Under the pieces are notes generated by a model, which searched no databases, was not told the origin of the DNA, and saw only the letters and a list, made by a program, of their open reading frames with translations. The position numbers were made by a program, and so were the translations under genes. A DNA stretch of 62,370 nucleotides, the filler included. It is 6 parts of 6 records of this genome, joined end to end, with 100 filler letters (N's around TTAATTAATTAA, not from the genome) between each part and the next. Parts side by side here need not be neighbours in the genome. Positions count along the whole stretch, not along the records: positions 41,875 to 49,105 come from SRR31147125_18527; 5 more parts are not named here. One strand, given 5' to 3'. Below, one piece after another: positions 4,053 to 56,825 of this stretch (positions are counted from its first letter, which is position 1; each line of letters starts with the position of its first letter).

Positions 4053-4787
4053 TCAGAACAGTTGCAAGGCAGCCTCTAAATCTTCAGGTGTATCTATCCC
4101 AATTGATTGTGTTTTAGTTTCGGCAGTTCGAATTTTATAACCATTCCCGAGCCAACGCAATTGTTCCAGCGATTCGGCTTTTTCTAATTTACCTTGCTCT
4201 AATTTAGTTATTTCCTGAAGCACATTCTTTTTAAAGGCGTACATGCCAATATGTGCCCAGTATTTATTTTCCGAAATCCAGCTATCTTTTTCACAACCAC
4301 GAAGATAAGGGATTGGAGAGCGGCTAAAATAAAGAGCATTTTTTTCATTATCTAAAACAACTTTGGGGCGGTTCGGATTAAAAAGTTCTTCCGAAGTTTC
4401 TATCTCTTTCACCAAGGTAGCAATCTCAACATCGTCGTAAAAACACGCTTTTAACTGCTCAATTTGTTCCGGTTTTATAAAAGGCTCGTCTCCCTGAATA
4501 TTAACCACCACATCGAAATCAACTTCCTCTGCCAGCTTTTGCGCAGCTTCGGCACAACGGTCGGTTCCACTTTGGTGTGTTGCAAGCGTATTTACCACAT
4601 TGCCTCCAAAAGCTTTTACTGTATCAAAAATACGCTTATCGTCGGTTGCCACACACGCATAATCGAGTGCTTTTGCAGCATTTTCATAAACCCACTGTAT
4701 CATCGGCTTATCTTTAATTATAGCCAATGGTTTCCCGGGAAAACGTGTTGATTGATATCGGGCCGGTATAATTCCTACAAACTTCAT
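4053..4787 (-). CDS. kdsB: 3-deoxy-manno-octulosonate cytidylyltransferase
   Basis: IIPARYQSTRFPGKPL, SGTDR, NIQGDEP, ESLEQLR, IDTPEDL. Confidence 0.97.
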   Translation of the reverse strand: MKFVGIIPARYQSTRFPGKPLAIIKDKPMIQWVYENAAKALDYACVATDDKRIFDTVKAFGGNVVNTLATHQSGTDRCAEAAQKLAEEVDFDVVVNIQGDEPFIKPEQIEQLKACFYDDVEIATLVKEIETSEELFNPNRPKVVLDNEKNALYFSRSPIPYLRGCEKDSWISENKYWAHIGMYAFKKNVLQEITKLEQGKLEKAESLEQLRWLGNGYKIRTAETKTQSIGIDTPEDLEAALQLF

Positions 4788-5016
4788 ATTTTATTAATTT
4801 GAGTACTGAACAAAGCACTGAGTACTTTCGACGGAATAAATTTTCGACAAAGATAACAATCAAAAAAAACAACTGCCCGGATTAACATTAAAACATCTTA
4901 AATGCAATTTTCATTCAAAATACACCTTGTAAATGCCTAAAAAAACTTAATTGTAACCGTCTAATTATCATTGCCAACGAAAAATTGTAAATTTGCACAC
5001 TGTTTATTTATAAAGC

Positions 5017-6249
5017 ATGGATGTACAATCAATTAAACAACGATTTGAAATAATAGGAAACACACCCGTTTTAAACCGCGCCATTGAGGTTGCGGTACAG
5101 GTGGCACCAACCGATTTATCGGTACTGGTAACCGGAGAAAGCGGTGTGGGTAAAGAAATATTTCCACAGATTATTCACCAGTTTTCGAGTAGAAAACATG
5201 GAAAATATATTGCAGTAAACTGCGGTGCAATTCCCGAAGGCACAATCGACTCTGAACTTTTCGGACACGAAAAAGGAGCATTTACCGGTGCATTAGCCGA
5301 TAGAAAAGGATATTTTCAGGAAGCCGATGGCGGTACAATTTTTCTGGATGAAATTGGAGAATTGCCGCTTTCAACCCAGGTTCGATTATTACGTGTTCTC
5401 GAGACCGGCGAATTTATAAAAGTTGGCTCGTCGAAGGTTGTTAAAACAAATGTTAGGGTTATTGCTGCAACCAATGTAAATATTCCACAGGCAATTGAAG
5501 AAGGTAAATTCCGCGAAGACCTGTATTACAGGTTAAACACCGTTCCAATTTCGATTTCGTCGCTTCGCGAAAGGGCCGAAGACATAAACCTGCTGTTCCG
5601 AAAATTTGCCCGCGATTTTGCGGAAAAATACCGCATGCCCCCTGTTCGTTTAACAGAAGAGGCTCGAATTGGATTAATGAATTTCCGTTGGCCGGGTAAT
5701 ATCAGGCAATTAAAAAACGTTACCGAACAAATTTCAATAATTGAAAAGGAACGCGAAATTACGGGAGATGTACTCCAAAACTACCTGCCTCAATCCGGAA
5801 CTAAAAATCTACCAGCAGTATTCCCGCATTCAGAAGATAACCAGTCTTTTTCCAACGAACGTGAAATTTTGTACAAGGTTCTTTTCGATATGAAAAACGA
5901 CATGAACGACTTGAAAAAACTGGTACTTGATTTAATGGAAAACCGGGAAGACCCGATTTCGGGCGATCAGGCACAAATAATTCGCAATCTTTATAATACT
6001 GAAGATGGAAGTTTTGCCGCTAAAGAGCCTGTGCACAATCCTATTCATATTACTCATGTTGAAAAAGAAAACATTCAGGATACTGAAGAGTTTGTAGAAG
6101 AATCGCTTTCTTTGGCCGACAAAGAAATTGAATTAATAAAAAAAGCCCTGGAAAAGCACCGTGGCAAACGAAAATATGCAGCACAAGAACTGGGTATTTC
6201 GGAACGAACGCTTTACAGGAAAATTAAAGAATACGATATCAAAGGATAA
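5017..6249 (+). CDS. Sigma-54 interaction domain AAA+ regulator with Fis-type HTH and no N-terminal sensor
   Basis: GESGVGKE, GAFTGA, FLDEIGE, FREDLYYRL, WPGNIRQL, C-terminal LGISERTLYRK. Confidence 0.92.
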   Translation: MDVQSIKQRFEIIGNTPVLNRAIEVAVQVAPTDLSVLVTGESGVGKEIFPQIIHQFSSRKHGKYIAVNCGAIPEGTIDSELFGHEKGAFTGALADRKGYFQEADGGTIFLDEIGELPLSTQVRLLRVLETGEFIKVGSSKVVKTNVRVIAATNVNIPQAIEEGKFREDLYYRLNTVPISISSLRERAEDINLLFRKFARDFAEKYRMPPVRLTEEARIGLMNFRWPGNIRQLKNVTEQISIIEKEREITGDVLQNYLPQSGTKNLPAVFPHSEDNQSFSNEREILYKVLFDMKNDMNDLKKLVLDLMENREDPISGDQAQIIRNLYNTEDGSFAAKEPVHNPIHITHVEKENIQDTEEFVEESLSLADKEIELIKKALEKHRGKRKYAAQELGISERTLYRKIKEYDIKG

Positions 6250-7795: not shown

Positions 7796-7895
7796 NNNNN
7801 NNNNNNNNNNNNNNNNNNNNNNNNNNNNNNNNNNNNNNNTTAATTAATTAANNNNNNNNNNNNNNNNNNNNNNNNNNNNNNNNNNNNNNNNNNNN
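7796..7895. other. Artificial contig linker
   Basis: N44-TTAATTAATTAA-N44; gene content and composition change across it. Confidence 0.98.
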
Positions 7896-30764: not shown

Positions 30765-30864
30765 NNNNNNNNNNNNNNNNNNNNNNNNNNNNNNNNNNNN
30801 NNNNNNNNTTAATTAATTAANNNNNNNNNNNNNNNNNNNNNNNNNNNNNNNNNNNNNNNNNNNN
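30765..30864. other. Artificial contig linker
   Basis: N44-TTAATTAATTAA-N44. Confidence 0.98.
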
Positions 30865-38510: not shown

Positions 38511-38996
38511 TTAGTCTTGTTTTCTATGGTAGACAGTTAATCCTTTAAGGAAATTTCTAAGGTAACTATCTAAACACTCTTTATAGTTTTTGTGACTAGG
38601 TTTTTGAAATAATCCGCCTATTTCAGACTTCGAGATTTTCACATTTGCATATTCAAAAATCTCAATCATAACATCTGTATGAAGTGAAAGAGCAATTTTC
38701 ATCTTCTTCATAATTTCATTATTAATATTTTTATTGTTTAATGCAATTGGCTTAGCAGGTTTTTGTCCTGGCTTTGGCTTCTGTCTTCCTCTTTTTACAA
38801 CGATAAATCCATCTAAAAATAGCCCAAGAGTTCTGTTGTTAATTTTAACAAAACCTTCTTCCTCTTCTTTCTTTAAGTAAGAACGTATTTCATCTTTAGT
38901 AACAGTTACACCTGATTCCTTAAAACTTTTGATTATAGTCTGATCAGGTAGATCAATAGCATATCGAAACCTTCTTAAAAAGTCATTATTTGTCAT
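38511..38996 (-). CDS. DUF1456 (YehS-like) protein
   Basis: MTNNDFLRRFRYA, FLDGFIVVKRG, NNEIMKKMKIALSL, YKEC.D..LRNFLKGL. Confidence 0.85.
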   Translation of the reverse strand: MTNNDFLRRFRYAIDLPDQTIIKSFKESGVTVTKDEIRSYLKKEEEEGFVKINNRTLGLFLDGFIVVKRGRQKPKPGQKPAKPIALNNKNINNEIMKKMKIALSLHTDVMIEIFEYANVKISKSEIGGLFQKPSHKNYKECLDSYLRNFLKGLTVYHRKQD

Positions 38997-41702: not shown

Positions 41703-41774
41703 ATGAGTAATACAACAGAAAATAATCTGTTACCTGGTAACTTTATAACAGATATTATTGATAAAGATTTAAAA
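41703..41774 (+). CDS. glnS: N-terminal fragment, probably glutamine--tRNA ligase
   Basis: SD GAGGAGG; MSNTTENNLLPGNFITDIIDKDLK resembles the GlnRS NFI..II..DL start; only 24 codons visible. Confidence 0.6.
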
Positions 41775-41874
41775 NNNNNNNNNNNNNNNNNNNNNNNNNN
41801 NNNNNNNNNNNNNNNNNNTTAATTAATTAANNNNNNNNNNNNNNNNNNNNNNNNNNNNNNNNNNNNNNNNNNNN
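41775..41874. other. Artificial contig linker
   Basis: N44-TTAATTAATTAA-N44. Confidence 0.98.
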
Positions 41875-41926
41875 TTATATTTTATTTTACAAGAGCCGAT
41901 AATTGCTTTAAGATAATGGAATAAGA

Positions 41927-41964
41927 ACATATAGTGTTGCTTAAGTCAAACAAACACTATATGT
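41927..41964. repeat. Perfect 12-bp inverted repeat upstream of the cargo operon
   Basis: ACATATAGTGTT-N14-AACACTATATGT. Confidence 0.8.
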
Positions 41965-42026
41965 GATGTTTCATAAAGAATAGATTAATATTAGTATTTT
42001 CATTCTAATGGTTTATAATTAGGAGT

Positions 42027-42434
42027 ATGTTCGTGAGTGACTTATATCTTTTTAATATTGGATTCAGATGTGAGAATATATGTGATGCACTCAAAGAATA
42101 CGAATCAGGTAATGATATGAATGTACTTGCATTACAAGATTCAGTCAAAATAATACATGACTGTCTACTAATTAAAAATGGTAATAGATCATTTTTTGGA
42201 TCTCCCAATAATACAAATGCGGACTTCCTTCCTCTCCTATTTGATTATTTCAATGGTCAGAATATTGATCGAATGGTCAAAACATTAGATAGGATAAATA
42301 AAGTACTTAATGATCTTAGTAACTCAAAGAAGGTTAAAAACACTAAAGAAGTTCAGCATTTTTTTGAGGGAATATCTGATTTATGTTTACGCGAACCTAT
42401 AGATAATAGATCGATGTATTACGGTTTCGCTTAA
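42027..42434 (+). CDS. Hypothetical protein, first gene of the cargo operon
   Basis: 135-aa ORF with AGGAG upstream; no recognisable motif. Confidence 0.7.
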   Translation: MFVSDLYLFNIGFRCENICDALKEYESGNDMNVLALQDSVKIIHDCLLIKNGNRSFFGSPNNTNADFLPLLFDYFNGQNIDRMVKTLDRINKVLNDLSNSKKVKNTKEVQHFFEGISDLCLREPIDNRSMYYGFA

Positions 42435-42467
42435 CTGAAACTTATCATTAATTAGTCGAGCTTAATA

Positions 42468-43846
42468 ATGATCAACAATCTACTTAAAGGCGAAATCTAT
42501 TCAAACATTCTAACTGTAAGGAAAACACTCCAGACACTTAAAACTCAAAGATTCCCGACTAAAGGGGCATCTGACCTCACAGAACTTTTGAATGAAATCA
42601 TTGATATAATGATTTCACGATTTGATAAATATAACAGCAGAAATCTTATATTTATTAAGAAAAAACTATTAACTAGATTTGGTGAATACTGTGGCTATCT
42701 ATCCGCCTCAAGATTAGAGAATATACCATGGAGCATAATTCCTGCATATGAAAAACTTTTAAATCAATATATCCTGATTTTGAGTTTATCTTATGCCCAA
42801 GATGGGAAGTGAATTATTCAATTAATGAAGATACATTAGATAATATTAAAAACTTCATCCTGAAAACACCAAGCCTTCTATTTGATGGAAAGTCACAAGA
42901 TGAGATTGATATTAAGGTCGAAACATTCTTAGAAAATTATCCTTCAGGATTATATTTTATTTTTTATCCAAAACATGAGAAACTCTCTGCATTACATTTT
43001 TCATTACTGGGTCATGAAATAGGGCATATATATTCTACTAAGTGGTTAAATAATAATTATGAGATTTTTTTAACCGAAACTAATTTAAAAAATGAAATCA
43101 AGAAAATTGCTGAAGAAAACTTCAAAAAAGAAAGTAAAAAAATGACTTTATATAAGGAAGTATTCATAAGTAAGACATCATATGAATATGAAAAGTATAT
43201 TAAACTGATACTCAATGAACTAATTTCTGATTTATTTGGTTCTTTAATTTTTGGTCATACTACTCTTGTTGCATCCTATTTATTCTCAAATGGATTAAAC
43301 CTCGATGACCATTGTAATTGGAAAACGGGTCATTTAAGTTGGCGATTTAGGCTACAAAACATATGGGAACTTATCAATTATATTGACACAAAAACGGGAA
43401 AACCCTTCAAGCATGAAAACCAAGTATGGGGAGAAATCATAAAGGAAATCAAAAGAGATTCGAAAGATATTGTTATAAATGAATACATTTCTGTTTTTTT
43501 ACATATATACAAACAGCACAGGGAAAGAATTGTTGAAGAGATACAATCAAGTATAGAGCCACATGTGTATTCAAATTTTCTATCAAATATATTTATAAAT
43601 GAAGCAATTCAAAGAATAAAAAATTGCATTCCACCAAATGCATACTGGAATTCTAGCAATATAGAGACTCCTATAGACTTCAGAAATATATTATTTGGGA
43701 CTTGGCTTTCAATATTTGAGAAAATTGAAGCGAATCATACAGAGTATGAGATTAGATCTAAAAGGATAAATCTCTTGAGTATTAAAGGAATTGAGCTTTC
43801 TATCGAGCAGGAGAACTATAATGACTTTATCGAAACAAGAGATTGA
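42468..43846 (+). CDS. About 459-aa HEXXH (zincin-like) protein, split in the ORF track by an apparent 1-nt deletion at 42751-42760
   Basis: Second frame is open from 42752 (FKSIYPDFEFILCPRWEVNYS); LLGHEIGHIY, downstream ELISD, and GHLSWRFRL. Confidence 0.7.
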
Positions 43847-44447
43847 AAATCGCTTACTTCCATCAAAGAATCCTTGTGAGCAAATTGTTGTAACGCCATT
43901 GTTAAATCCAGTAAAACAAATAGGTCCATGCAGTATAGATATTAGACTTGGGAAACAATTTATAATTTTTAATGAGCAGATTCAAGATACATTTGAACCG
44001 ACAAAAGAGAAAAACTTAGAAGAACTAAAAAAGTATCAAGATGAAGTTGTTGTTCCCTTTGGACACTGCATCATTCTACATCCTGGAAAATTACTAATTG
44101 CAGGTTCATTAGAATATGTAGCCATTCCATTAGATTTAGAATGTCAAGTTGAAGGAAGAAGTTCTTGGGCTAGACTCGGATTAATTACAGCTACTGCAAC
44201 AACAGTAGAGCCAGGTTATAAAGGTATAATTACCTTAGAATTAAGCAATACTGGAAAAATACCGATGAAGTTATTTCCAGGATTACGAATTGCACAACTA
44301 ATATTCCATAGAATCGAGAAAGAAACCGCAAATAGTTATAAAATAGATTCAAAGAAAAAATACAAATATTGCATTGGACCAGGCATCAGTAGAATACATC
44401 ATGATACAGATCTTGACTATTTTTCCCAACAATCAACTCATAATTGA
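43821..44447 (+). CDS. dcd: dCTP deaminase (trimeric dUTPase fold)
   Basis: SIDIRLG, EGRSSWARLGL, VEPGYKGIITLELSNTG, PGLRIAQL; SD AGGAG; overlaps the upstream gene by 26 nt. Confidence 0.9.
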   Translation: MTLSKQEIENRLLPSKNPCEQIVVTPLLNPVKQIGPCSIDIRLGKQFIIFNEQIQDTFEPTKEKNLEELKKYQDEVVVPFGHCIILHPGKLLIAGSLEYVAIPLDLECQVEGRSSWARLGLITATATTVEPGYKGIITLELSNTGKIPMKLFPGLRIAQLIFHRIEKETANSYKIDSKKKYKYCIGPGISRIHHDTDLDYFSQQSTHN

Positions 44448-45346
44448 ACTTTGTTACCAAAATAAGTATCATTGTAATCAATATTTTGAAGATCCAAACT
44501 TGTTTTTAGATGTTTCAAATTTGCCTCTGCAAAATTGTCTATAGTATCTGTATCATTTAAAAGCATGTTTACAAAATCAACAGACCTTGTCATATTTGAA
44601 TATATCAATCTTAAGAAGAGTGAATATCCTTTTGATTCATCATATTCGTGTATCATTTTATACCGAAAATCAGAAAATAATATATCTTTGAGAATTAAAT
44701 ATGTAGAGAAAAACTGAAAATATATTTCTATTTCATTCTTCTCTAAAATAAAATTGAAAAAATCGTCACCATATTTTGAGATTTTTGTTGACAGAAGTAT
44801 AGATAAAATTGTTTTTGCATCCCTACCTAAACTAGGGTTCATCAAGGATTCATATACATATTCTTCTAGTTCATCCTCTAATACCTGATATTGACAATTA
44901 TATAAGTAATTAATACCAGAAAGTTTGATTTCAGGTTCATCAGAGTAAAGATTACTAATTGCATCAGTTTTATTATAGTTTTCCTGGCTTTTTAATGTTT
45001 CAATAATTCTGTTCTTAGCATAATCTTCTATATTTTTTTCCATTTCTATTATTCTAGTCTCGATTTCACTTACAGGCTTAATTCCAAAGAGGTATGTAAT
45101 CAGTGGAAGAACAATACTCAATAATGACAAGAAGCCTATAAGTATTGTCATTATATCTATATAATTTTCAAATTTTCGAACATATTCATTCTCTATTTTC
45201 AGTAAGGTATTATTATATGACTCTTCCAAATCTGAGACTTTTTCAATTATTCTCGATTCAAAATATTGTTGATCTTTCTTCTTATCTGAAGAGATCTGAA
45301 AGACTACAAAACTCAAGAGCAATACCAAAAAAAACTTTTTTTTCAT
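44438..45346 (-). CDS. Hypothetical membrane protein (N-terminal hydrophobic segment, coiled coil, TM, helical C-terminal domain)
   Basis: 302-aa ORF with GGAG SD; TM IMTILIGFLSLLSIVLPLITYLFGI. Confidence 0.7.
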   Translation of the reverse strand: MKKKFFLVLLLSFVVFQISSDKKKDQQYFESRIIEKVSDLEESYNNTLLKIENEYVRKFENYIDIMTILIGFLSLLSIVLPLITYLFGIKPVSEIETRIIEMEKNIEDYAKNRIIETLKSQENYNKTDAISNLYSDEPEIKLSGINYLYNCQYQVLEDELEEYVYESLMNPSLGRDAKTILSILLSTKISKYGDDFFNFILEKNEIEIYFQFFSTYLILKDILFSDFRYKMIHEYDESKGYSLFLRLIYSNMTRSVDFVNMLLNDTDTIDNFAEANLKHLKTSLDLQNIDYNDTYFGNKVQL

Positions 45347-45445
45347 AAGAACTCCATATATTGGATTTATTAAGGCCTATTGAACGATAGTTTAATTTGT
45401 TTTATATATCCTTCATGGGAAATTTTACTATCCATCATTCTGAGA

Positions 45446-45808
45446 TTATTTCTTAACCTCTGCCAAAGACTCAGTATGATAAAGTTCTATCATACCCTGG
45501 ATTTTCATTCTTCGATCTTGATCTAGATGTGAGTAACTCAATACTGATTCCCTAAACTCCCTATCATGATCCATTAATCCTTCAAATCGCATATCTTTCT
45601 TAAGAGGAGAGCATCCATTGATAAGATCTTCTACTGTCGTGTCGAGTGACCGAGCGATTCTGACTGCTCGATCAGCAGGAGGATAACGGTCTTGTTTAAT
45701 CCAAGAATAAACGGTGCCCTTACTAACTCCCACACGTCTTGCCAAGTCTGCCTGAGTTAATGATAACTCTTTAAGCCGTTTCATAACTGTCAACCAAAAT
45801 ACATTCAT
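45446..45808 (-). CDS. XRE/CI-like HTH repressor
   Basis: LTQADLARRVGVSKGTVYSW...IARSLDTTVEDL; start moved to ATG 45808. Confidence 0.88.
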   Translation of the reverse strand: MNVFWLTVMKRLKELSLTQADLARRVGVSKGTVYSWIKQDRYPPADRAVRIARSLDTTVEDLINGCSPLKKDMRFEGLMDHDREFRESVLSYSHLDQDRRMKIQGMIELYHTESLAEVKK

Positions 45809-45910
45809 ACCACTATTATCGCATAGTGCGCATTTGAACACTATTTTTTTAATAAAAATATTGACAAGTCTGCATATGAGCGCTATACATATAGCAGGAG
45901 TGCTCATATG
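45809..45910. promoter_or_regulatory. Divergent promoter/operator switch region
   Basis: TTGACA at 45861 (+); extended -10 TGCGATAAT (-) 6 nt before the repressor ATG; three CACTAT/ATAGTG half-sites; CATATGAGC/GCTCATATG inverted repeat. Confidence 0.65.
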
Positions 45911-46105
45911 AACGCTAGGAAGCAGCTAAATGTATCCCTCCCAGAAGCGATTTATAGATATGCAACTGGTCAGGCAAAGCTTTCAGGAATGTCAATTAAA
46001 GAATTTGTTCAAAAGGCTCTTGTAGCTTATGGCAAACAGTGTGAATCAGAACGAGCGTGTGAAGTGGAAATCATAGAACTTCAGTTACAGGAGAAAAACC
46101 AATGA
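45908..46105 (+). CDS. Ribbon-helix-helix-like small DNA-binding protein (Cro position)
   Basis: KQLNVSLP beta-strand, then helix-GMS-helix; SD AGGAG. Confidence 0.7.
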   Translation: MNARKQLNVSLPEAIYRYATGQAKLSGMSIKEFVQKALVAYGKQCESERACEVEIIELQLQEKNQ

Positions 46106-46467
46106 CAGATATATTAGAGAAATCTGATCTTGTAGATTTCGAAAAACGTCTCATGAGCTATCTGGAAATGATCACGGCAGAGCCAATGAAACAATGGTTC
46201 TCCATGGAAGATCTGGCAAACCTAAGGCAATGCTCAACCTCCGAATTATATAAGAATGCCGAAGTACTACCTCATTTTGGTATTCCTGAGGACCGCTGGG
46301 GACGGACTCCCGTATGGAGCAGAACCACTGTAAAGGATTGGCTGCTGAGAACTCGTAAAGAGCTGGAGATCCTGGCAACAGCCCGGACTCCAGATGAAAT
46401 TGAAAAAGCAGAAATGTTACGGGCAGCGGCATCTGTTCGTAATGGCAATATAGCACTGGTGAAATAG
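46102..46467 (+). CDS. Hypothetical phage early protein, possibly excisionase-like HTH
   Basis: ATGA-coupled; WFSMEDLANLRQCSTSELY...PVWSRTTVKDWL. Confidence 0.55.
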   Translation: MTDILEKSDLVDFEKRLMSYLEMITAEPMKQWFSMEDLANLRQCSTSELYKNAEVLPHFGIPEDRWGRTPVWSRTTVKDWLLRTRKELEILATARTPDEIEKAEMLRAAASVRNGNIALVK

Positions 46468-46547
46468 GAGGTGACATAGAAATAGAAAACTTAATACAAA
46501 TCCCCCTTTGCTGGAGCTTATGACAAGGCGGCTTCAGCACAAAATCA

Positions 46548-46630
46548 GGATCGGTTGTTCATGGTGCGCAACAGGTTTCAACTTCCCCCCTGAGGTTGAA
46601 TCCTTGCAGGTTCGAATCCTGTACGATCCA
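46548..46630 (+). ncRNA. tRNA-like RNA element 1 (non-canonical)
   Basis: Acceptor GGATCG/CGATCC+A; T-arm GCAGG-TTCGAAT-CCTGT; D-arm GTT/AAC with GG; extended middle stem TTCAACTTC/GAGGTTGAA with CCCCCT loop. Confidence 0.65.
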
Positions 46631-46664
46631 TATTTATTTCAAATACAGGTAGGAGAGAGCCAAT

Positions 46665-46952
46665 ATGAACAAGAGAATAATTGATCCTGAATTACTGAAT
46701 CGTGTTGAGGAATGGATAAACGAATCTTCTGAAGTAAACAAAGGGATTGAACAGCTCAGAGAGAAAAGAAAAAACATCATCCAGGATCTTTACACCATCC
46801 TCGGAAACTATGGTTTTAAAATACTGGGAATCAAAGACCCCTGGAATTTCAAAAACGGCACTGTAGATCCCATGTCACCCATCACTTTTCATGTAATTCC
46901 TGAAACACTGGATCCGGATAAAAAGCCCGATGAAAAGGAACTCAATGTTTAA
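46665..46952 (+). CDS. Hypothetical protein
   Basis: SD AGGAGAG; 95 aa, helical/coiled-coil character. Confidence 0.7.
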   Translation: MNKRIIDPELLNRVEEWINESSEVNKGIEQLREKRKNIIQDLYTILGNYGFKILGIKDPWNFKNGTVDPMSPITFHVIPETLDPDKKPDEKELNV

Positions 46953-47066
46953 GAAAAGCAAATAACCTCCTGTTGATTGGTTTGTGGTGATTCATTCTCA
47001 TGAGGTATTGACTGGATATCCTGCCGGAGATTCTTCCGGCCTATTTTTCCAAGAACTTTATGTATC

Positions 47067-47133
47067 GGGCAGGAAGGTGCCTTGGAGGTTTATCTCCTTT
47101 TCCTCTAAGAGGGTTCAATCCCCTCCCTGCTCA
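47067..47133 (+). ncRNA. tRNA-like RNA element 2 (minimal)
   Basis: Acceptor GGGCAGG/CCTGCTC+A; T-arm GAGGG-TTCAATC-CCCTC; reduced D and anticodon regions. Confidence 0.55.
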
Positions 47134-47266
47134 TAACAGAAGCCTGACCAGCTTCTACCGTGCGACACCTGCCCCGGAACGGAGTTTCCGGTGTGGACGG
47201 GTCAAGAGTGGTGTGACTGTCTTGAGAGCGAGGCATAAATAAATATTCATTCATGTGAGGTCAAAC

Positions 47267-47479
47267 ATGGAAACAACAGAAATCTCCTGCGGGTTCCTGT
47301 TCGTCAAGAACGGAGAAACAGTCCCTTGCGGCCAACAGGCCACCCATTACCATGAGGATATTCCCCTCTGCCCTAAATGTACGGAGTACGCCCAGCATAT
47401 CGGATTAAAAACACATCCGATAACCGAGGAGTTTAACCGGAATTGTGAGGACAACGCAAAGGAGGCCGTAACCGCATGA
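47267..47479 (+). CDS. Small Cys-rich putative zinc-binding protein
   Basis: C...PCG...LCPKC; SD GAGGT; ATGA overlap with parA. Confidence 0.6.
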   Translation: METTEISCGFLFVKNGETVPCGQQATHYHEDIPLCPKCTEYAQHIGLKTHPITEEFNRNCEDNAKEAVTA

Positions 47480-48240
47480 AAGTGATCACATTCAGCTCTA
47501 TCAAAGGAGGAACAGGAAAATCATCTTGTTCCATCATGACAGCCAACTATCTGGGACAGTGCGGAAAGAGGATTCTCTGTATTGATCTTGATATCCAGAA
47601 CAGTCTGACCTTCTACTACGGAGAAAATCCCGATCTTCTGGAAACCAATACCATAGCAGAGGCCCTTCATAAAGGAGACCTTAAAGGGAATATCATTCCC
47701 ACCGGTCGGAAGAACATCGATTTCATCCCCTCTTCCTTTAATCTAGTCAACCTTAGAGCCATCAGCCCCTATAGTTTGATGAAACTGCTTCATCAGATCT
47801 CAGATCAGTATGATTACTGCCTGATAGATACGGCCCCGACCTGGGATAACATCACATTGAACGCACTTCATGCTGCCGATCAGATCATTACTCCGGTCCT
47901 TCTCTCTCAGTGGGACTGGAAAGGAGCAGTGTTCTTCCGTAATCAGATCATGCAGGACCTGGGAGAGCATGTTCTTGAAAATTGGAAACTCCTTTTCAAT
48001 GGCTGGAAGATTCCACGGACTGAGAACCCGGAAAATCTGAGCAATCAGCATCTGGCGCTCTTCAAATCCGATTTCGATAACATTCTTCATATACGGATTC
48101 CCGAAACCATGATGGTCAAGAAGCATCTGGATACGGATGAAAAAATCACCATGGCACGGGACAAGAAGAGACTGTACATCGCTATACAGTTTCTCTGTGA
48201 AGCCCTGACTGGTGATCTTATGGATGCCGGAGCCTTCTGA
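47476..48240 (+). CDS. parA: ParA-family partition ATPase
   Basis: KGGTGKS deviant Walker A, IDLDIQNSLT, LIDTAP. Confidence 0.92.
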   Translation: MKVITFSSIKGGTGKSSCSIMTANYLGQCGKRILCIDLDIQNSLTFYYGENPDLLETNTIAEALHKGDLKGNIIPTGRKNIDFIPSSFNLVNLRAISPYSLMKLLHQISDQYDYCLIDTAPTWDNITLNALHAADQIITPVLLSQWDWKGAVFFRNQIMQDLGEHVLENWKLLFNGWKIPRTENPENLSNQHLALFKSDFDNILHIRIPETMMVKKHLDTDEKITMARDKKRLYIAIQFLCEALTGDLMDAGAF

Positions 48241-49079
48241 TGGCAAAGAAACTCACAGTTTCAACGAATGCAGGGAAACGGAATATAACAGGAGGGGAAT
48301 CTCTCTCCCAGTTAACCGAAAAACTTCGGGATCTGAAAAATCGGGTTCCGGTTTCCGTACCGGTAGACACAATTCCCACCGGCGAACCTTTTGTGAACCT
48401 TTTTCCCATTCAGGAAAAGAACAAGAACGCCATCATGGAATCAATCCAGGCAAACGGGTTTGATGATAAGAAGGCCCTGATTGTCGGAGTATTCCCGGAC
48501 GGAAAGAACCTTCTTATCGACGGTCATACACGATTGGCGGCGTCCAAAGCCCTGTCCCTTCCGGAAGTCCCTCTCTGGTATCAGGAGTTCTCTTCTGTTG
48601 ATCAGGCGGTTGACTGGGCGCTCCATGAACAGATTGATCGGAGGAATCTCACAGATGCTGAGATTTATGAGTACGTACTGAAGGTGGATCAGACCGCCGT
48701 CAAAGGAACAAGGTTTGATGATGGATATAAAGGAAAAACGGCAGCCCGAACAGCTCAGATCATCGGGATTTCCCGGGGGCGGGTGGAAAAGATCAGGACT
48801 GTTAAGAAACGGGCTTCTGAGACTCAGAAAAAGGAACTCAGCACAGGTCAGAAATCTCTTAATCGAGTCTATGAAGAGGTAAAGGAAAAGAAAGCCACAG
48901 ATGAGGCTAAAACGGAACGGGATTGGCAGATTGAAATCCGGGGAGCATCGATATCACTGATCCGCAAGAATCAGGTGATCCCATTGGTTAATTGTAAATC
49001 CATGGTGGAACTCTATGACGGCGCTCCCCTCTCCCAGATCCGGAGAGAAGTTGAAAAATGGATGGTCAAGGTCCTGTAA
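48240..49079 (+). CDS. parB: ParB-like partition protein
   Basis: ESIQANG, LIDGHTRL, RRNLT, HTH TAQIIGISRGRVEK; overlaps the parA stop. Confidence 0.85.
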   Translation: MAKKLTVSTNAGKRNITGGESLSQLTEKLRDLKNRVPVSVPVDTIPTGEPFVNLFPIQEKNKNAIMESIQANGFDDKKALIVGVFPDGKNLLIDGHTRLAASKALSLPEVPLWYQEFSSVDQAVDWALHEQIDRRNLTDAEIYEYVLKVDQTAVKGTRFDDGYKGKTAARTAQIIGISRGRVEKIRTVKKRASETQKKELSTGQKSLNRVYEEVKEKKATDEAKTERDWQIEIRGASISLIRKNQVIPLVNCKSMVELYDGAPLSQIRREVEKWMVKVL

Positions 49080-49080
49080 A

Positions 49081-49100
49081 AGATCCGGTTTCCCGGATCT
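49081..49100. repeat. 8-bp inverted repeat directly after parB (parS candidate or hairpin)
   Basis: AGATCCGG-TTTC-CCGGATCT. Confidence 0.5.
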
Positions 49101-49105
49101 CGAAA

Positions 49106-49205
49106 NNNNNNNNNNNNNNNNNNNNNNNNNNNNNNNNNNNNNNNNNNNNTTAATTAATTAANNNNNNNNNNNNNNNNNNNNNNNNNNNNNNNNNNNNNNN
49201 NNNNN
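49106..49205. other. Artificial contig linker
   Basis: N44-TTAATTAATTAA-N44. Confidence 0.98.
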
Positions 49206-56725: not shown

Positions 56726-56825
56726 NNNNNNNNNNNNNNNNNNNNNNNNNNNNNNNNNNNNNNNNNNNNTTAATTAATTAANNNNNNNNNNNNNNNNNNN
56801 NNNNNNNNNNNNNNNNNNNNNNNNN
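56726..56825. other. Artificial contig linker
   Basis: N44-TTAATTAATTAA-N44. Confidence 0.98.

Follow-up and report, generated by a model that had tools for sequence, protein, structure and literature searches.

A rare, apparently mobile cassette linking a zinc-metallopeptidase-like protein to a dUTPase-fold dCTP deaminase: a candidate gated nucleotide-depletion system

The window analyzed here is a stretch of 62,370 nucleotides (nt) built from six draft contigs. One of these, a contig of 7,231 bases at window positions 41875-49105 (SRR31147125_18527), carries three consecutive genes that we call A, B and C. The three are predicted to be a translationally coupled operon and, as comparison with related loci indicates, a conserved, self-contained, rare and horizontally mobile cassette, in which a small orphan gene and a gene for a zinc-metallopeptidase-like protein precede the gene for a dCTP deaminase of the Dcd fold. 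Our reading, to which we give roughly even odds (a probability of about 0.5), is that the cassette would act as a gated conflict system that depletes dCTP or generates dUTP, serving in anti-phage defense or, as a close variant, in stabilizing a mobile element. The contig begins 152 bases 5' of A, and the genes and motifs of the cassette are as follows (aa, amino acids; ORF, open reading frame).

42027-42434, plus strand: gene A, a 135-aa orphan ORF and the first gene of the cassette
42468-43846, plus strand: gene B, 459 aa, deposited as two ORFs at 42468-42812 (114 aa) and 42809-43846 (345 aa)
43013-43027, plus strand: HEIGH motif of B, with putative zinc ligands and catalytic Glu
43214-43231, plus strand: NELISD motif of B, with the putative third zinc ligand Glu and a helper Asp, 64 residues after HExxH
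43821-44447, plus strand: gene C, a Dcd-fold dCTP deaminase of 208 aa from the ATG at 43821 (AGGAG upstream)
44154-44180 and 44232-44249, plus strand: catalytic motifs GRSSWARLG and TLELSN of C

An earlier note on this DNA, made from its letters, had described a 135-aa ORF, a split gene for a protein of about 459 aa and an overlapping dcd gene with intact RSS and LEL motifs, and all of these are present. C overlaps the end of B by 26 nt; it could also start at a TTG at 43791, giving 218 aa, yet the ATG at 43821 is the likelier start.

Scanning genome and metagenome contigs with a profile of B returned 23 loci. A homologue of C lies directly 3' of B in 19 of them, and three of the other four (L015, L018 and L023) stop at or inside B at a contig edge; the fourth, in a Treponema metagenome-assembled genome (MAG; L004), has A and a truncated B with no C. 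An A-like gene is located upstream of B in 19 of the 23 loci as well, 13 recognized by tblastn and 6 by hhalign, with which the six small upstream ORFs are found to be homologous to A (probability 88%, E 2.9e-6, 137 columns). At the remaining four loci the upstream sequence is missing or occupied by an insertion sequence (IS). When the B profile was compared with 1.84 billion cluster representatives, 793 matched at E<=1e-3 and 423 at E<=1e-10. Among the B homologues listed, all five that exceed 700 aa have PF22769 as their C-terminal part and are therefore B-C fusions, and in L017 the two genes also share a single frame of 719 aa.

P0099, P0121, P0124, P0132 and P0171, and positions 1-2160 of L017: B-C fusion proteins of 713-737 aa

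A B/C deletion fusion is also encoded on a contig of 1.5 kb (P0031). The natural fusions imply that B and C would be coupled physically, and together with the 19 loci they bear out the expectation of the earlier note that relatives of the HExxH protein consistently precede dcd.

The cassette is found in several phyla, with named hosts among Desulfobacterales, Chitinispirillaceae, Neomarinimicrobiota, Treponema and Desulfocicer MAGs. Close copies, whose C proteins are 71-94% identical, have no common flanking ORF at E<=1e-10 except in the trio L008, L010 and L018, which stem from one context. Three of the five genome loci are damaged.

L001, 5174-6595: a DDE transposase (IS) between B and C
L003, 68-1197: an IS3-like element in place of A and the start of B
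L004, 5617-6492: B truncated and C missing

C scores 139.4 bits with TIGR02274, against an equivalog cut-off of 92.8, and 114.4 bits (6.5e-33) with PF22769, against a cut-off of 27. It also matches the Dcd structures of Escherichia coli (2e-26), Mycobacterium tuberculosis (2.9e-24) and Methanocaldococcus jannaschii (1.2e-16). Equivalents of E. coli Ser111, Arg115 and Glu138, which we take to be catalytic as in E. coli Dcd, occur in all 24 cassette or fused C proteins compared, including that of the window. The position of E. coli H121 is a gap in the same 24. From these features C is predicted to be a catalytically competent, trimer-type dCTP deaminase with the dUTPase fold. The C-terminal lid residues of free Dcd (E. 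coli Q182, Y171 and K178) are not conserved: only 1 of the 24 C proteins, cassette and fused, has an equivalent of Q182 versus 11 of 12 free Dcds, in the C-terminal end of C where the alignment is least certain, and the Y171 column consists mostly of gaps. The divergent lid is a plausible site at which C may be regulated.

We compared cassette and free enzymes in a maximum likelihood tree of 41 sequences, in which the 13 free Dcds comprise 12 from a sample of 61 genomes of a single phylum plus that of E. coli. All 13 fall on one side of a branch with support values of 93/93, found in 94% of bootstrap trees. The window's C groups among the cassette copies, with L007 nearest (59% identity), and the fused B-C forms make a clade of their own (96/95). 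The dcd gene of the window is thus not grouped with housekeeping copies, a grouping that the earlier note had named as speaking against its reading. A Dcd scoring over the cut-off is encoded by 14 of the 61 genomes in the sample; in the other 13 of these, no B lies within the 1.5 kb fetched per side.

In the deposited sequence B is interrupted by a frame change within GAAAAACTTTTAAA, near 42751-42762, whereas homologues of 456-478 aa span both ORFs. The public run X1 contains 99% of the sampled words of the stretch, and one X1 contig (25,366 bases, depth 65), the only X1 contig there, covers 42027-44447 in one piece. Over this interval it has no substitutions relative to the deposited sequence and differs by one indel only, a T added behind 42756, so that the T-run at 42757-42760 is T4 as deposited and T5 in the X1 contig. 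With the extra T, B is 459 aa long and aligns end to end with the homologue P0001 (44.8% identity over 460 columns, E 5.8e-135), which agrees with the frame repair made in the earlier note. X1 is possibly the source sample, which would make this contig a re-assembly and not an independent isolate, and contigs hide minority variants. Because the extra T restores the full-length protein, the most likely cause of the break is a miscalled homopolymer in the deposited assembly and not decay into a pseudogene. Further homopolymer frameshifts may be present in the same assembly.

Zinc sites in which HExxH is followed by (N)ExxSD are the signature of gluzincins such as thermolysin and neprilysin. In 138 representatives of the B family, H183, E184, G186, E251, D255 and R295 (P0001 numbering) are invariant and the second His, H187, is present in 137; R383, N391 and K440 are kept in 118-126. 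B therefore has the gluzincin HExxH and the downstream Glu/ExxxD at the level of motifs, and from the invariant HExGH...ExxxD motif we infer that it is a zinc-metallopeptidase-like protein. The gluzincin-type site read from HEIGH and ELISD in the earlier note stands to this extent, but matches at the level of fold are weak. The only trace in Pfam is Peptidase_M13, which spans both motifs at E 0.056 and 13.5 bits (cut-off 24.5); no Pfam match exceeds its threshold, and there is no NCBIfam or PHROG match. A Pfam search of 25 B homologues at E<=10 returned nothing consistent and no peptidase family, and a profile search of the PDB gave no match at E<=10.

We also modeled B with AlphaFold2, using P0001 (predicted local distance difference test, pLDDT, 90.2; predicted template modeling score, pTM, 0.87) and the 345-aa piece from the window (pLDDT 88.4). 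The predicted protein is soluble and all-alpha save for a few short strands. It would consist of an N-terminal three-helix bundle, a core in which the few short strands accompany two long helices bearing HExGH and NExxSD, and a helical C-terminal domain of ~190 residues. Foldseek searches of the PDB with both models found nothing at E<=1e-3, nor did a fold search of the BFVD viral library, where rows labeled zincin or peptidase appear at E 0.1-1. In VIA fold searches the best match of B (Z 8.4) covers only the N-terminal three-helix bundle and that of the 345-aa model (Z 6.5) the last helices; nothing in the PDB exceeded Z 5.0 with B. The sole fold matches over the motif region are to M48 ZMPSTE24/Ste24 (Z 4.7-6.7, root-mean-square deviation 7-11 Å), which lie in the noise range. 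The nearest named clusters in the ESM Atlas are U49/M48 (0.78-0.79), which we regard as a lead only. The identification of B as Lit (U49), suggested by the Atlas score of 0.79, was not borne out, as hhalign against the single E. coli Lit gave a probability of 0.13% and PADLOC returned no Lit match. A search for longer relatives of the window's B scored none, which is weak evidence.

Gene A has the conserved motifs NxGFR, DC and FF. It has no match in Pfam, NCBIfam or PHROGs, a profile search of the PDB gave nothing better than E 0.19, and no homologues were returned by a word-based search and no usable match by the ESM Atlas. By hhalign, A is similar to neither B nor C.

The gene neighborhoods were scanned over 115 ORFs from 19 loci. 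In the Chitinispirillaceae MAG (L002, 7786-10096) a complete PD-Lambda-5 system lies immediately 3' of C (A 1.1e-186, B 6.9e-116), at L001 an Mrr-type nuclease (Mrr_cat) adjoins C, and a mad3/AriA-like ATPase is present in the neighborhood of L007. Weak pAgo/CARF and PDC-M51A matches occur in L011 and L016; at L011 the ORF concerned (4760-6178) lies ~1 kb upstream of the cassette and has weak pAgo (6.7e-9) and CARF-associated matches. PDC-M11 A and B and a type I restriction endonuclease (REase_I) are also among the 115 neighbors, with no locus assigned. Such defense neighbors at some loci are suggestive of a conflict role but do not decide the matter. Whether homologues sit in defense islands, as the earlier note asked, differs between loci: some, such as L002, have defense neighbors, and others are flanked by housekeeping genes.

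Under the reading given at the outset, C would be held inactive by A and/or B. A trigger would activate B as the gate or sensor, and B would cleave A or the lid on C. Released C would convert dCTP to dUTP or dUMP, and the loss of dCTP would starve the replication of invading DNA as dU nucleotides rise. The parts given here to B as a peptidase, to A as its substrate or an inhibitor, to C as a regulated enzyme and to the whole in defense are those that we infer for them, and gating of C by a protease is conjecture. We hold tentatively, as possible and rather less than probable, a more specific form of the mechanism: the trimeric dUTPase-fold deaminase would be silenced in a stoichiometric complex with the protease B and the inhibitor A until an invader cue sets off proteolysis, whereupon a flood of dUTP and the removal of dCTP would leave the invader's DNA starved and uracilated.

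Several results weigh against a role in conflict. PADLOC-DB 2.0.0, put forward as a check in the earlier note, had no family matching A, C, either piece of B or the neighboring gene D described below at E<=0.1. B lacks a Pfam match above threshold, a sequence match in the PDB and a Foldseek match at E<=1e-3. Few free Dcds were sampled for the tree (12 from one phylum plus E. coli), and the dUTPase (Dut) root falls inside the cassette group, which makes the rooting unreliable. Housekeeping genes are common neighbors, among them DnaA and DnaN (2 ORFs each), pyruvate kinase, aconitase and sugar-nucleotide enzymes. No relatives of B were found in 2.9 million viral contigs, nor by tblastn with B in 72,556 plasmid and 50,697 phage records; the link to a mobile element seen in the window is therefore not general. 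G002, G003 and G005, three of the four MAGs that have a cassette C, show no strong Dcd-class match other than this copy and one of Dut size, which fits a metabolic role too, although these MAGs are incomplete and the evidence for an only copy is accordingly weak.

A metabolic role of this kind would make the cassette a regulated housekeeping route to dUMP, in which C would be the usual dCTP deaminase serving thymidylate synthesis, assisted by A and B as accessory regulators or chaperones. The equivalog-level score of C, its standing as the sole strong Dcd in those three MAGs and the core genes such as dnaA/dnaN that flank several loci would all be explained, yet the distribution is patchy, with 14 Dcd-bearing genomes among the 61 of the phylum and no B near the other 13. 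Close copies share no flanks, three of five genome loci are hit by IS elements or truncation, and cassette C stands apart from free Dcd both in the tree and in its lid (Q182 in 1/24 versus 11/12). The housekeeping explanation is on this balance unlikely. We consider it also improbable that the cassette is an addiction (toxin-antitoxin-like) module without a primary anti-phage role, in which C as toxin, A as labile antitoxin and B as dedicated protease would stabilize the mobile element carrying them. In its favor, coupling of the three genes is tight and they are transferred together, the short contig of the window cassette also encodes ParA, a ParB-like protein and a CI-like repressor, and inactivated copies are frequent (L001, L003 and L004), as is typical of costly toxins. 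Against this stand the failure to find relatives in the plasmid, phage and viral collections and the scarcity of plasmid or phage genes at most loci, with 2 integrases and 2 IstB proteins among the 115 neighbors.

The same cassette would be read differently if B were not a peptidase. As a metal-dependent nucleotide enzyme or binder, B could work with C in the synthesis or breakdown of a special nucleotide (which might be a signal, a modified base or a product related to dU), and the pair would do more than deplete dCTP. No peptidase family or fold was recognized for B, Arg, Lys and Asn predominate among its conserved residues outside the metal motif (R295 in 138/138; R383, N391 and K440 in 118-126 of 138), which would suit phosphate binding, and its fusion to a nucleotide enzyme fits a two-step pathway. 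HExGH followed by NExxSD is nevertheless the classical gluzincin signature, and the weak traces are all of peptidases (M13 at E 0.056, Ste24/ZMPSTE24, the zincin rows of the viral library and the U49/M48 ESM clusters); we rate this alternative as quite improbable. A dead remnant in the window, with B truly frameshifted, is very improbable: the deposited sequence does split B into ORFs of 114 and 345 aa, but the depth-65 X1 contig with its extra T encodes a B of 459 aa, and A and C are intact, with the caveat that the run is possibly the source sample and that its contigs hide minority variants. The gated conflict system keeps the roughly even odds stated above.

The remainder of the window sets limits on what can be read from its gene order. 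The six draft contigs are strung together via five linkers, and gene neighborhoods across the linkers are therefore not real. A gene start at 41704 is interrupted by one of them.

7796-7895, 30765-30864, 41775-41874, 49106-49205 and 56726-56825: linkers of the form N44-TTAATTAATTAA-N44

The cassette and the neighboring gene D have a G+C content of 26-33%, the part from the repressor to the ParB-like gene 38-50%, and the two largest contigs of the window 31-32%. The cassette thus fits the composition of the presumed host, and it is the partition and repressor part that seems foreign. The earlier description of an AT-rich operon applies relative to the right half of the contig but not relative to the largest contigs. 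The features around the cassette on its contig are listed below.

41927-41964, no strand assigned: inverted repeat with perfect 12-bp arms (100% complementary) and a 14-nt spacer, 63 nt upstream of the start of A
44438-45346, minus strand: neighboring gene D, 302 aa, hydrophobic at the N-terminus and in a second stretch, convergent with C
45446-45907, minus strand: CI/Xre-type helix-turn-helix (HTH) repressor (PF01381 1.7e-10; PF07022 1.4e-8)
47476-48240, plus strand: ParA-type ATPase (PF13614 2.5e-30)
48240-49079, plus strand: ParB-like protein (phrog_4715 6.7e-13; TIGR00180 20.4 bits, below its cut-off)

The inverted repeat is a candidate operator or upstream terminator and may not belong to the cassette. 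Promoter-like sites were not more frequent than in shuffled sequence, and no terminator was found. The 3' end of D overlaps that of C by 10 nt. D has no match in Pfam or NCBIfam, and tblastn found no counterpart in any of the 23 cassette loci, which places it outside the cassette. A phage-type repressor next to the operon had been noted earlier; a CI/HTH_3-type protein is indeed encoded at 45446-45907, but the convergent gene D intervenes. This repressor gene is divergent from several small ORFs on the plus strand, in the arrangement of a switch, and marks the start of the GC-richer part of the contig. The CapH and RmrA models of PADLOC match only this HTH protein and none of the cassette proteins. 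In content, the segment 45446-49105 resembles part of an integrative or plasmid-like element; a blastn search of the plasmid collection with the right half of the contig (45400-49105) gave no match. The proposal that the cassette is mobile-element cargo is plausible, given the ParA, ParB-like and CI-like genes that accompany it on this short contig. Two other observations concern neighboring contigs. An aldehyde dehydrogenase has its best match, at 60% identity, in a Coprobacillus MAG, and that contig looks Bacillota-like. On the preceding contig a DUF1456 protein (38511-38996, minus strand, 6.2e-48) with two repeats is encoded, without relation to the cassette.

If the more specific mechanism holds, the cassette would represent a new class of immune system: no protease-gated effector of the nucleotide pool and no defensive use of the Dcd/dUTPase fold would have preceded it. 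A second, unrelated fold would then serve the same end, pointing to convergent evolution of nucleotide-pool immunity, and a protease-like partner would be a new way of gating a metabolic effector. The B family, with ~800 clusters at 50% identity, would then make up a new family of metallopeptidases. A and B are sizeable orphan families (793 clusters for the B profile, without family or fold assignment), and a function for them would annotate many environmental genes now called hypothetical. Should the cassette instead be a dUMP-supply operon, it would add a new layer of control to a textbook enzyme. The apparent pseudogene that turned out to be an assembly error is also a lesson for annotation.

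From bacteria to humans, viruses are countered by depletion of deoxynucleoside triphosphates (dNTPs), an established strategy. To our knowledge, the bacterial examples directed at dCTP have so far all had the zinc cytidine-deaminase fold. Full-text literature searches found no description of an HExxH-Dcd cassette. DefensePredictor (PMC13092281) names, in the portion of the article available, 'a dUTPase' among predicted, unvalidated defense domains; this may or may not be the cassette, and may thus be an earlier in silico mention. C has the same fold family and catalytic Ser, Arg and Glu as housekeeping Dcd (E. coli b2065, PDB 1xs1/2j4h; TIGR02274, PF22769), and by sequence it also shares the fold family of the bifunctional dCTP deaminase:dUTPases of M. 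tuberculosis (2qxx) and M. jannaschii (1ogh). In contrast to both, cassette C is linked or fused to B and accompanied by A, lacks the H121 position and has a divergent C-terminus; relative to housekeeping Dcd, its locations appear mobile and patchy and it lies on the other side of the 93/93 branch.

With the defensive dCTP deaminase described by Tal et al., dCTP is depleted and dUMP rises; according to the accessible part of that report, the enzyme has a zinc-dependent cytosine-deaminase domain and an N-terminal kinase-like domain (10.1101/2021.04.26.441389), which upholds the contrast in folds drawn in the earlier note. AvcD is described, in the available text, as a deoxycytidylate deaminase toxin restrained by an RNA antitoxin (PMC10511110). 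The proposed outcome of the cassette would be alike, with loss of dCTP and a rise of dU nucleotides during infection. In contrast to these two, C has the unrelated dUTPase fold and two protein partners, and it has no PADLOC match; no zinc cytidine-deaminase or kinase-like Pfam domain was found in A, B or C.

For B, the nearest comparisons are the M48 peptidases Ste24/HtpX and the M13 peptidase neprilysin, which have a long spacing from HExxH to Glu. B shares HExGH and NExxSD with them and has a weak M13 trace, but it lacks a significant sequence or fold match and would differ in its three-helix bundle and helical C-terminal domain of ~190 residues. Lit (peptidase U49, from prophage e14) is a zinc protease that aborts T4 infection and acts alone. 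It resembles B as a defense-associated protease with HExxH, and unlike B it has no nucleotide-enzyme partner. CapP/CapH of the cyclic oligonucleotide-based antiphage signaling system (CBASS), ImmA/IrrE-type peptidases with an HTH repressor and RmrA of RosmerTA are protease-gated immune modules. The role proposed for B would be alike in idea, with a zinc peptidase freeing an effector or repressor in response to a danger signal. No M78/ImmA match was obtained for B, however, and in contrast to CapP/CapH, ImmA and RosmerTA its partner is an enzyme rather than a DNA-binding repressor, to which it is at some loci directly fused as to an effector.

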